Source of the DNA: Candidatus Aminicenantes bacterium
Lineage (GTDB): Bacteria > Acidobacteriota > Aminicenantia > Aminicenantales > JAFGBC01
Direction: 5' to 3'
Assembly (NCBI GenBank): GCA_963702005.1
Contig: OY969696.1
Coordinates: 256,001-320,000, forward strand
Length of the DNA: 64,000 nucleotides
Position 1 is the first letter of the stretch. Each line of letters begins with the position of its first letter. Shown piece after piece: positions 6,438 through 12,487 of this stretch. The translations under genes were made by a program, and so were the position numbers. The notes under the pieces were generated by a model. It was not told the origin of the DNA, ran no database searches, and was given only the letters and a program-made list of their open reading frames with translations.

Positions 6438-6517
6438 ACGCTCACCGCCCGGGCCGGCAGGCTCTCTAATTTACCATGTCGCCGGAATATTTTCCAGATC
6501 GATCTCGGACGGCGGAT

Positions 6518-6584
6518 CCGGTTTTCAAAACAGCCTCGCTCCCCTTCAACCTTCAATGGTCGCTTCGGCTGTTATGAAAACCGG
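6518..6584 (-). repeat. Short copy of a structured (REP-like) element: 18-bp inverted arms around a conserved tandem-G.A core
   Basis: Arms CCGGTTTTCAAAACAGCC / GGCTGTTATGAAAACCGG (17/18 complementary). The minus-strand core CCGAAGCGACCATTGAAGGTT-GAAGGGGAGCGAGG matches the two ends of the 11600-11847 element. Confidence 0.75.
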
Positions 6585-10427: not shown

Positions 10428-11429
10428 TTATTCGAGGACGACTTCGCGCCGGCCGGATATGACGTCGCCGATGACCCAGGCCGGAGAGCGGAGTCCCTCA
10501 AAAAAGCGGATCGCGTCCCGGGCCAAGCGCCTGTCGAGGACGACAACCATGCCGATCCCCATGTTGAAAGTCCGGAACATCTCTCGTTCCCCGACCGAGC
10601 CTCGGGCCCGGATCGTCCGGAACGGCTCGGGAATCGGCCAGCTGCCGCGCCGAATCCGCGCGCCGCGGCCCTCGGGCAGGACTCGCGGGATGTTGTCGTA
10701 AAATCCGCCGCCCGTGATGTGGGCCATGGCCTTGACCGGAAACCTCCGGAGCGCCTTGAGGATGAGCGGCGTGTAGATGCGGGTCGGCTTGAGAAGGCAC
10801 CGGCCCCAATCTCCCCTAAGCTCTCTCTCCGAGAACGCATTTCGGGCCAGGCTGAATCCGTTGCTGTGAAGTCCGCTCGAGGCAAGGCCGACGACGACGT
10901 CGCCCTCCCGCGCCCGGCGGCCGTCGATGATCCTGTCTTCGTCGACGATCCCGACGCAAAACCCGGCCAGGTCCCACTGCTCGGGAGCGTAGAGCCCGGG
11001 AAGTTCCGCCGTCTCCCCGCCAATGAGGGCGCAGCCGGCCTGTCGGCAGCCCTTGACGATCCCCTTCATGACCTCGGCCAGAAGGCCGCTTCGGACCCGG
11101 CCGCAAGCGATGTAGTCCAGGAAGAAGAGCGGCTCGGCGCCGCTGACGACGACGTCGTCCACGTTCATGGCGACAAGATCGATCCCGACCGTGTCGTACT
11201 TGCGGAGGATGTCGGCCAGCATGAGCTTGGTGCCGACGCCGTCCGTGGACGAGACCAGGACCGGTTTCCGCATCCCCTTGAGCCGGAGCCGGACCAGGCC
11301 GCTGAATCCGCCGATCCCGGCCAGGACTTCGGGCCTCATGGTCGAACGGACCATAGGCTTGATCTTCCGGATGAAGCGGTCGGCCTCGTCGATGTTCACG
11401 CCGGCCTTCCGGTAGGTCAGGGCGGCCAT
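10428..11429 (-). CDS. purM: Phosphoribosylformylglycinamidine cyclo-ligase
   Basis: YRKAGVNID, STDGVGTKL, GAEPLFFLDY, IGGETAE, SSGLHSNGFSL, HITGGG, TFNMGIG. Confidence 0.98.
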   Translation of the reverse strand: MAALTYRKAGVNIDEADRFIRKIKPMVRSTMRPEVLAGIGGFSGLVRLRLKGMRKPVLVSSTDGVGTKLMLADILRKYDTVGIDLVAMNVDDVVVSGAEPLFFLDYIACGRVRSGLLAEVMKGIVKGCRQAGCALIGGETAELPGLYAPEQWDLAGFCVGIVDEDRIIDGRRAREGDVVVGLASSGLHSNGFSLARNAFSERELRGDWGRCLLKPTRIYTPLILKALRRFPVKAMAHITGGGFYDNIPRVLPEGRGARIRRGSWPIPEPFRTIRARGSVGEREMFRTFNMGIGMVVVLDRRLARDAIRFFEGLRSPAWVIGDVISGRREVVLE

Positions 11430-11599
11430 CTCGCTCTCCTTATCGGTTTTTTTCCTTATATCACCCCCCGGAAATCAAGTCAAACCATTGACACTCATGA
11501 AAGCCACGAGTATTGCAAGCCGGGGCTCCGATTTTAAGCCCCGCCTTCCTCATTTTGACCAAGCTAGCACCCTGGAGCAGTAAGCGGCCGGCTAATACA

Positions 11600-11847
11600 A
11601 AAGGAGACGTGGGCGCCCGAAGCGACCATTGAGGGTTTAGCCTTCCCTTGCCGTTCTTCGAGGGAATCCCCTTTCGGGGGCGCCGAGTATGTTTGAGCAC
11701 GCTAGAACACATTAAATAAAGCCGAGGATGCCGTGGCTCTTGTGAATCGGCTCGTTCTGACGTGCGGAGTTACGCAGGCGCCGAGAAGGACGGCAAGGGA
11801 ACGGCGTATAAAACCCGAAGGGGAGCGAGGGTGCCCACGTCTCCTTT
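11600..11847 (+). ncRNA. Putative rod-shaped structured RNA or ssDNA element, family unassigned
   Basis: Nested helices AAAGGAGACGTGGGCGCCC/GGGTGCCCACGTCTCCTTT, GGGTTT/AAACCC, TTCCCTTGCCGTTCTTC/GAAGGACGGCAAGGGAA, GCGCC/GGCGC, GCACG/CGTGC, TAGAAC/GTTCTG, AGCCGA/TCGGCT. The stem mismatches are G.U on the + strand. A T-rich tail follows. Confidence 0.65.
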
Positions 11848-11859
11848 CGTTCTTTTGGC

Positions 11860-11888
11860 TGTAACCTTGGGCTATAATTCGAGTATAT
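11860..11888 (+). promoter_or_regulatory. Candidate ECF-sigma autoregulatory promoter
   Basis: TGTAAC-N17-GTATAT ending about 35 nt upstream of the ECF sigma ATG. The same AAC-N17-GTATAT occurs upstream of the orphan TolC gene. Confidence 0.5.
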
Positions 11889-11923
11889 CCCCCTGAAAGG
11901 ACGCGAATCTTCAGGTAGCGACT

Positions 11924-12487
11924 ATGGCCCCCCACGACGACAGCCGGATCATGAAAGACGTCCAGGAGGGCGAGGTTGAAAAGCTGGCCATTCTTTTCGA
12001 ACGGCACCACCTCTCCCTCTACAACTTTTTTCTCCGCCTGACCGGGAACCGGGCCGCCAGCGAGGACCTCGTCCAGGACGTCTTCGTCCGCATCCTCAAA
12101 TACCGTTCCAGCTTCCAGGCCCAGGGCCCTTTCGCCGTCTGGATGTACCAAATCGCCAGAAACGCGCATATCGACCACATCCGGAAACGCCGGGATAAGG
12201 ACACGCTCCCGCTCGACGACCAATGGGCCGAAGCCGTCAGCCCGGAACCCCCGCCCGAAGCGGCCCTCGAATTCCGCCGGGACCGGATCCTGATCAGGAA
12301 GGCTCTTGATTCGCTCCCGGAGAAGAAACGGGAGGTCCTGTTGCTGAGCCGATTCCAAGACCTCAAGTACAGGGAGATCGCCAAGATCCTCGGCAGCAGC
12401 GAAGCCGCCGTTAAAACCATCGTCCACCGCTCGCTCAAGGAGCTGGGCAAAGCCTTCGCCGCCCTCCAGGAAGGAGTAACCTCATGA
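11924..12487 (+). CDS. ECF RNA polymerase sigma factor
   Basis: SEDLVQDVFVRIL, FAVWMYQIARN, ALDSLPEKKREVLLLSRFQDLKYREIAKILG...VKTIVHR. Confidence 0.95.
   Translation: MAPHDDSRIMKDVQEGEVEKLAILFERHHLSLYNFFLRLTGNRAASEDLVQDVFVRILKYRSSFQAQGPFAVWMYQIARNAHIDHIRKRRDKDTLPLDDQWAEAVSPEPPPEAALEFRRDRILIRKALDSLPEKKREVLLLSRFQDLKYREIAKILGSSEAAVKTIVHRSLKELGKAFAALQEGVTS

Follow-up and report, generated by a model that had tools for sequence, protein, structure and literature searches.

A dispersed repeat family of the Aminicenantales with a conserved, strand-specific interior and variable ends

The window, a stretch of 64,000 nt from Candidatus Aminicenantes bacterium, carries between purM and an ECF sigma factor gene a rod-like element that very probably belongs to a family of mobile repeats. 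In the overall reading that we consider the best, and which we regard as fairly probable, it is an immobile copy of a mobile, order-wide structured repeat module that probably acts at the RNA level. What is distinctive about the family, to judge from comparison of its sequences, is an elaborate strand-specific interior that is conserved across the order while the ends vary or are absent. The family appears to be undescribed so far, a superficial search of the literature on Aminicenantes repeats, noncoding RNA, miniature inverted elements and ISL3 miniature inverted-repeat transposable elements (MITEs) having found no description of it; its kind (structured dispersed repeats, MITEs) is known.

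At 11600-11847 the earlier note had described a rod of ~250 nt, and this rod is real in that all of the features listed for it are visible in the sequence (Table 1). The + strand of this segment folds at -135.3 kcal/mol (z -8.7) with none of 200 shuffles equally stable, and the - strand at -116.6 kcal/mol (z -8.1). The closing stem of 19 bp contains one G.U and is adjoined by tandem G.A loops as noticed before, P2 is formed by GGGTTT/AAACCC, and the inner stem comprises 17 bp plus GCC/GGC (11640-11659 with 11785-11805). The side hairpin was found to read CCCC-TTTC-GGGG (11668-11679), and the T-rich tail is present at the 3′ end. An AAAGGAG followed by GTG and seven codons, to which attention had been drawn as an element locked in the closing stem, exists in the window copy but is not conserved across copies because the closing stem differs in every one of them.

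Table 1. Features of the rod, of its neighbours and of the miniature copy in the window
Feature	Position	Strand	Remarks
Miniature copy	6512-6584	-	Closing stem of ~20 bp and basal module only; 53 bits, model R1
purM	10428-11429	-	Flanks the rod
P1 (closing stem, 19 bp), 5′ arm	11600-11618	+	Copy-specific sequence; from the fold
Basal module, 5′ side, GAAGCGACCATTGA	11619-11632	+	G.A loops opposite 11817-11828
P2 (GGGTTT) and P3 (GCC + 17 bp), 5′ strands	11633-11659	+	Paired with 11785-11816
Three-way junction	11660-11686	+	CGAG module: GA 11660-11661 opposite GA 11783-11784
Pairing in three-way junction	GG 11662-11663 with CC 11781-11782	+	
Side hairpin within three-way junction	11667-11680	+	
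P4, CGCC	11681-11684	+	Paired with 11777-11780; inside the three-way junction segment
P5 (GTA) and P6 (GCACG), 5′ strands, with conserved TGAGC G.A loop	11687-11701	+	Pairs with 11761-11773
Apical region	11702-11760	+	Variable sequence, weakly structured
P6, P5 and P4, 3′ strands, and junction GA	11761-11784	+	From fold, covariation and GA/GA counts
P3 and P2, 3′ strands	11785-11816	+	Bulged C 11802; asymmetric loop GTATA 11806-11810
Basal module, 3′ side, GAAGGGGAGCGA	11817-11828	+	
P1, 3′ arm of closing stem, then T-rich tail 11845-11858	11829-11847	+	From sequence and fold
ECF sigma factor gene	11924-12487	+	Flanks the rod; starts 76 nt 3′ of it
zf-HC2 anti-sigma protein, then DUF4097 protein		+	Same side as the ECF sigma factor

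Members of the family are non-coding repeats of ~190-260 nt. A covariance model finds seven of them in the genome from which the window comes (G000), four full copies and three miniature copies of ~75 nt. Searches by BLAST and nhmmer detect two full copies besides that of the window, at ~70% identity, together with fragments. The recurrence of the outer core at 6518-6584, noticed earlier, was confirmed and proved to be a miniature copy on the - strand. All three miniature copies consist only of the basal module (GAAGCGACC ... GGGGAGCGA) and of a closing stem of ~17-21 bp that is their own. Two partial copies were also seen in the same genome, a rearranged one at C1:2841486-2841534, in which the 5′ core is joined to other hairpin sequence, and one at C1:3713703-3713757, in which a 3′ half lies immediately past the stop codon of a gene.

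Beyond this genome the family appears to be confined to one order and is patchy within it. The covariance model was positive in 43/151 genomes of a sample of the class, all in the one order, with matches in 42/64 other genomes of the order versus 0/86 from other orders and with no match in the remaining 22/64; no more than 13 candidates were scored in any one genome, so that the counts per genome (at least 13 in several genomes) are lower bounds at the top of the range. At the level of BLAST, 26/41 genomes of the order are positive and have between 1 and 37 matches, and presence varies even within genera (25 versus 0 BLAST matches in genus g2). In a BLAST sample of the whole phylum 3/251 genomes were positive, all within the order. 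When genomes of named species were scanned with a pattern, most matches were to records of Candidatus Aminicenantes or Aminicenantales, with some chance matches in unrelated taxa to be expected from a pattern of 17 specified bases.

The architecture of the rod was compared across 87 distinct full copies (66 clusters) drawn from 185 loci, of which 49 diverse representatives were aligned. RNAalifold predicts 39 pairs in the 49 copies, 27 of them with compensatory changes. In a check for covariation against a structure of 64 pairs and eight helices, hand-written from folds of the same sequences, 45/64 pairs were found changed on both sides among the 49 copies. The paired cells amount to 87.8% compared with 74.5% when columns are shuffled (0/500 shuffles reach the observed value), and to 39-47% when partners are slid by 1-3 columns, the latter control being somewhat flattering since the structure was derived from the same sequences. 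All 18 modelled pairs of P1 have changed on both sides in the 49 copies, P2 is 99.7% paired, P3 is 94.3% paired with double changes in 12/20 pairs of the helix, and helices 5 and 6 in the junction segment each have double changes in 3/4 pairs. Single pairs illustrate the pattern, one that is never broken being A-U in 27 copies and G-C in 21, and one in P4 being C-G in 21 copies and G-C in 21.

Five 2x2 GA/GA loops in a CGAG-like context recur along the rod and are kept in 45, 42, 35, 44 and 47 of the 49 copies. The two basal loops lie at columns 28-29/252-253 (retained in 45/49) and 38-39/245-246 (42/49) of alignment A2, the junction GA/GA is retained in 44/49 and that of the TGAGC segment in 47/49, while the least-kept loop (35/49) has given way to Watson-Crick pairs in several copies. 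The stem of the side hairpin is kept across copies with varying length and sequence. The tip of ~60 nt has little sequence conservation and carries GGA motifs, its purine fraction on the + strand having a mean of 0.63 (above 0.55 in 39/49 copies, below 0.50 in 1/49) and a value of 0.53 in the window copy.

These features are strand-specific. The + strand is the more stable in 64/66 cluster representatives, with a mean difference of 16.7 kcal/mol, and the modelled pairs of the 49 copies include 170 G.U versus 78 A.C (83 versus 26 in the closing stem), counts that are inflated by the kinship of the copies. On the - strand the GA/GA loops would become pyrimidine mismatches. Taken together, the fold preference for the + strand, the excess of G.U over A.C and the GA/GA loops indicate a single-stranded functional form, such that the conserved strand-specific architecture would point to a single-stranded form of the + strand, probably RNA. 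RNA is suggested as the simpler reading of that form than single-stranded DNA; among mismatches, G.T is the one best tolerated in single-stranded DNA too, and the two forms are therefore not distinguished by this excess. No consensus promoter was found in 11380-11980. The orientation of the repeat relative to neighbouring genes could be called with both neighbours in 26/87 copies (10 divergent, 6 convergent and, among co-directional pairs, 5 sense and 5 antisense) and revealed no bias. The test has low power, since of 400 trials the strand caller got 266 right and 94 wrong and made no call in 40; stricter length settings left most copies uncalled.

The closing stem differs from the rest of the rod in that its pairing is kept while its sequence is free. 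In an anchored scan 65/87 copies showed a closing stem with a length of 12 bp or more beside the core, the misses comprising 14 copies without the anchor motifs and eight that were mis-anchored; the second full copy of the window's own genome is among the mis-anchored and has a plain closing stem of 19-20 bp. The sequence of the stem differs between subfamilies and is common within a subfamily, and two copies of the own genome that are 87% identical in the core share nothing in the closing stem. CGGGAATGGCY adjoins the core in many subfamilies, and the outermost 2-6 pairs of the stem, although complementary, are often specific to one copy. One miniature copy of G000, at C1:2450333, has an ortholog in G001, a genome of the same genus. 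The two have a 3′ core identical over 41 nt (query 164-204) beside differing intergenic DNA, and the outer ~8 pairs of the stem have changed at ~5 positions on both arms. Template switching at quasi-palindromes is a DNA-level source of compensatory stem changes that requires no selection, and the block changes in this orthologous stem would fit such a process. Since template switching can yield block changes of this kind, covariation in the closing stem alone is no proof of selection. An origin of the stem by insertion into a pre-existing palindrome, or by inverted target duplication, was considered and set aside on comparison of window 6525-6581 with the empty site in G001. Complementarity to the target there is limited to a CCG...CGG pair and 4 nt, so that the stem is mostly borne by the insert; this comparison is one clean empty site with flanks ~85% identical, and it is not decisive.

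The suggestion in the earlier note of a foldback mobile element is supported for the family, which is multi-copy and patchy with filled and empty sites and ISL3-type ends, but not for the ends of the window copy itself. ISL3-type inverted repeats were found at both ends of 29/87 copies, at one end of 9/87 and at neither end of 49/87, and target duplications of 8-9 bp with at most one mismatch accompany 19/28 testable repeat-bounded copies. In one complete sister genome ~10 nearly identical copies have GGCTCTATAACGAATAGTGTGG / ...CACACTTTTCGTCACAGAGCC at their borders together with direct repeats of 9 bp, and in another genome the ends are GGTTCTCTTCCATTTCGTGTGGG with AT-rich duplications of 8 bp. 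In this repeat-bounded form, which occurs in many lineages, the elements are miniature transposons of ~275-340 bp with the rod as their inner part. ISL3 elements are known to have ends that begin GGCTCTT and to generate 8-bp duplications. Transposases with the DDE_Tnp_ISL3 domain are encoded in 12/41 genomes of the order; in one of them (G023) an element of ~1.33 kb with an ORF of 420 aa has the ends GGTTCTCTTCCATTTACTGTGGG / GGTTCTCTTCCATTCGGTGTGGG and an 8-bp duplication, in a second (G011) a similar repeat pair flanks the transposase match, a third (G033) has one such ISL3-type end and a fourth (G031) a GGCTCT... variant. Because the ISL3 elements of sister genomes share the same terminal repeats, the repeat-bounded copies are, as far as their sequences tell, ISL3-type MITEs with the rod as interior.

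Terminal inverted repeats and a target duplication are both missing from the window copy, and in its genome no ISL3-type repeats were found at any copy and no match to an ISL3 transposase (0 matches). Its membership in the transposon form consequently rests on homology of the inner module. Copies in genome G008 likewise end at the closing stem, with unrelated flanks beyond it. A different arrangement was observed in one subfamily of G040 (L195-L201), in which an extra outer palindromic layer, GAGCGAAGAAGCGGGCGAA ... TTCGCCCGCTTCGAGCGAGC, lies beyond the ISL3-like repeat, and which looks like an element nested in another or a palindrome grown outward. A candidate autonomous element in G003 was rejected, the four repeat ends there being unpaired and the ORFs beside them encoding no transposase but peptidases, an amidohydrolase, EF-P and GMP synthase.

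Presence or absence at matching sites was checked for five sites of the own genome against genomes of the same genus, with three sites found empty, one rearranged and one conserved. The empty sites are those of the miniature copy in the window (6525-6581), 57 nt of which are lacking in G001, and of two other full copies, both absent from the matching sites in G001 and one also in G002; the conserved site is that of the miniature copy at C1:2450333. The rearranged site is the window locus, at which G001 has a spacer of 141 nt with a reversed family fragment compared with 373 nt in the window. Metagenome contigs ~97% identical to the window (two runs of one study) join 11440 to 11797 via 50 other letters and thus lack 11441-11796 while retaining the 3′ end of the element. 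The segment 11582-11788 has a metagenome depth several times that of its flanks, which is what a repeat present community-wide should give. Contigs that skip from 11666 to 11767 or from 11698 to 11767 were considered as alleles and set aside, their short sides measuring 23 letters, and are read as other family members.

Several observations were made on the surroundings of individual copies. At the site of the own genome's third full copy, which lies between two adjacent genes, G001 (L216; C82, ~1199-1250) has a spacer of 57 nt in which a 3′ core motif, GGGAGCGAGG, stands alone and the stem arm is a different one, and G002 has only ~4 nt; on this comparison the site appears to have been struck or remodelled more than once. 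In the window a TATAAT at 11873-11878, 5′ of the ECF sigma gene, is common to G001. The -35 region is not the same in the two, and in the window that stretch is provided by the rod's tail. Copies in three other genomes (L188, L189 and L191 in G008, L013 and L038 in G010 and G023) have TTGACA or TTGATA 15-25 nt past the 3′ arm of the closing stem, with a plausible -10 element ~17 nt further on. It is plausible that the element often lies directly 5′ of a promoter or supplies part of one. Just 5′ of the rod, at 11487-11558, is a second, unrelated short repeat with TTGAC at both sides, which has 25 BLAST matches in the own genome (one at C1:2442785-2442822) and ~35 in G001.

Comparison with known RNA families did not place the rod. 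When the window was searched against Rfam, as the earlier note had proposed for judging novelty, no family reached its gathering score except two tRNAs, and in a permissive scan of 11400-12000 the best match, to the hairpin of a plant miRNA, had 21 bits where the threshold is 200 bits; the permissive matches at the rod are chance-level hairpin matches. At ten other loci with family members no Rfam 15 family reached its threshold. The possibility of a divergent 6S-like RNA, raised earlier, was not borne out, the 6S model (RF00013) having no match in the window or in the own genome and the copy number and patchiness being unfitting. The silence of that model is weak evidence either way because it detected 6S in only 5/14 control genomes, while dozens of copies in some genomes and no match in 22/64 of the order are unlike a housekeeping RNA, of which nearly every member of a lineage would carry one or two copies. 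The rod resembles 6S RNA in shape, both being rod-like folds whose 5′ and 3′ ends pair to close them; it differs in belonging to a multi-copy, patchy family and in having a variable centre in which a conserved bubble is not evident. A CsrA sponge, prompted by the GGA-rich tips, was ruled out as CsrA (PF02599) was found in 0/41 genomes of the order by a search that was positive in 3/14 control genomes.

How the family is maintained can be read in several ways. We think it rather probable that an RNA-level structure is under selection in the family, in which case the conserved module would work single-stranded, most likely as RNA of the + strand, as inferred from CGAG/CGAG loops that are stable only on that strand, G.U in excess of A.C and better folds of the + strand. 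The closing stem, free in sequence and kept paired, might then be a clamp or a site of double-strand-specific processing (by RNase III, for example) that would free the rod from a carrier transcript; a role as processing site is itself rather doubtful. The window copy would be an immobile insertion that was gained, or rearranged, once its lineage had separated from the nearest relatives sampled. A more specific proposal, which we put forward only tentatively, sees in the rod a structured RNA of a new class, carried by ISL3 miniature transposons and serving as scaffold of a ribonucleoprotein. The five CGAG/CGAG modules and the three-way junction would be read by an order-specific protein, release from carrier transcripts would occur by cleavage in the ~20-bp closing stem, and after decay of the transposon ends the host would keep the rod, or its ~75-nt basal form, as a processing or regulatory element. 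Set against this is the view that the rod is a purely selfish DNA palindrome, a filler of miniature transposons whose pairing is kept and extended at the level of DNA, through template switching at quasi-palindromes and correction of one arm against the other, with no RNA role. The classic inverted repeats and target duplications at many copies, the lack of orientation bias, the lack of a promoter at the window copy, the concerted change of both arms in the orthologous stem and the copy-specific yet complementary outermost pairs are all in keeping with it. Template switching should perfect the arms, however, yet GA/GA loops are kept in 35-47 of the 49 copies, as are the bulged C, the asymmetric loops and the side hairpin; the + strand is favoured in 64 of the 66 representatives, and full and miniature copies without transposon ends stay intact in a genome that has no such repeats. 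We consider the selfish palindrome, with the processes named for it, rather unlikely.

Less probable again is that the copies are stand-alone genes for a trans-acting RNA, a 6S-like decoy of RNA polymerase or a protein sponge, that were captured and multiplied by transposons. Such genes would agree with the rod shape and its elaborate conserved architecture, with the purine-rich tip and its GGA motifs, and with the failure of the Rfam model to find a canonical 6S in the own genome, though the weakness of that model in the control genomes leaves its silence with little force in either direction. A range from 0 to at least 13 matches per genome within one order speaks against them, no conserved flanking gene or promoter was found, and with CsrA found in none of the 41 genomes a CsrA sponge is excluded. 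A locus-specific cis element, either a terminator or insulator or a 5′ leader of the ECF sigma operon, is very improbable. Rod and sigma gene do lie on one strand with the rod a short distance 5′, and the rod has a T-rich 3′ tail and is followed by a TATAAT common to G001, but G001 and the near-identical metagenome contigs are without the element at this locus, other copies adjoin unrelated genes and no promoter precedes the rod. The preferred reading remains that of an immobile copy of a mobile structured module.

Aminicenantes are uncultured and abundant in sediments and wetlands, and to our knowledge their non-coding repertoire is essentially unknown. The present family, unusual among dispersed bacterial repeats in conserving its interior rather than its ends, suggests either that a structured RNA is hitch-hiking in transposons or that hosts retain a cargo of transposons. 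If the RNA reading is true, more than 100 natural variants would be available as a target in the search for a new RNA-protein partnership, and the family would help to account for the seeding of regulatory RNA structures by mobile repeats. If it is false, the family still marks genome plasticity in the order and is also a source of spurious calls of novel ncRNA.

Among the closest known systems are the ISL3 elements and their MITEs. The ends GGYTCT...GTGTGG of the repeat-bounded copies are also found on the ~1.3-kb DDE_Tnp_ISL3 elements of sister genomes, and the repeat-bounded copies are flanked by duplications of 8-9 bp. The insertion sequence itself has no rod, its 420-aa ORF filling the element, whereas the rod family conserves its interior rather than its ends, which are lacking in 49/87 copies including that of the window. 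REPs are ~35 nt long with a conserved tetranucleotide, and REP/BIME sequences share with the rod family the dispersal of intergenic palindromes that are possibly nested. Correia elements of Neisseria, ERIC of enterobacteria and BOX and RUP of pneumococci are short multi-copy intergenic foldbacks, co-transcribed with neighbouring genes and folding as RNA, the Correia hairpins being a substrate of RNase III. They are defined by conserved ends and form simple hairpins. Compared by described features and not by sequence, they are like the rod family in being intergenic foldback repeats, while the rod differs in conserving across the order a module of ~200 nt with five G.A loops and a three-way junction, its closing stem being free.
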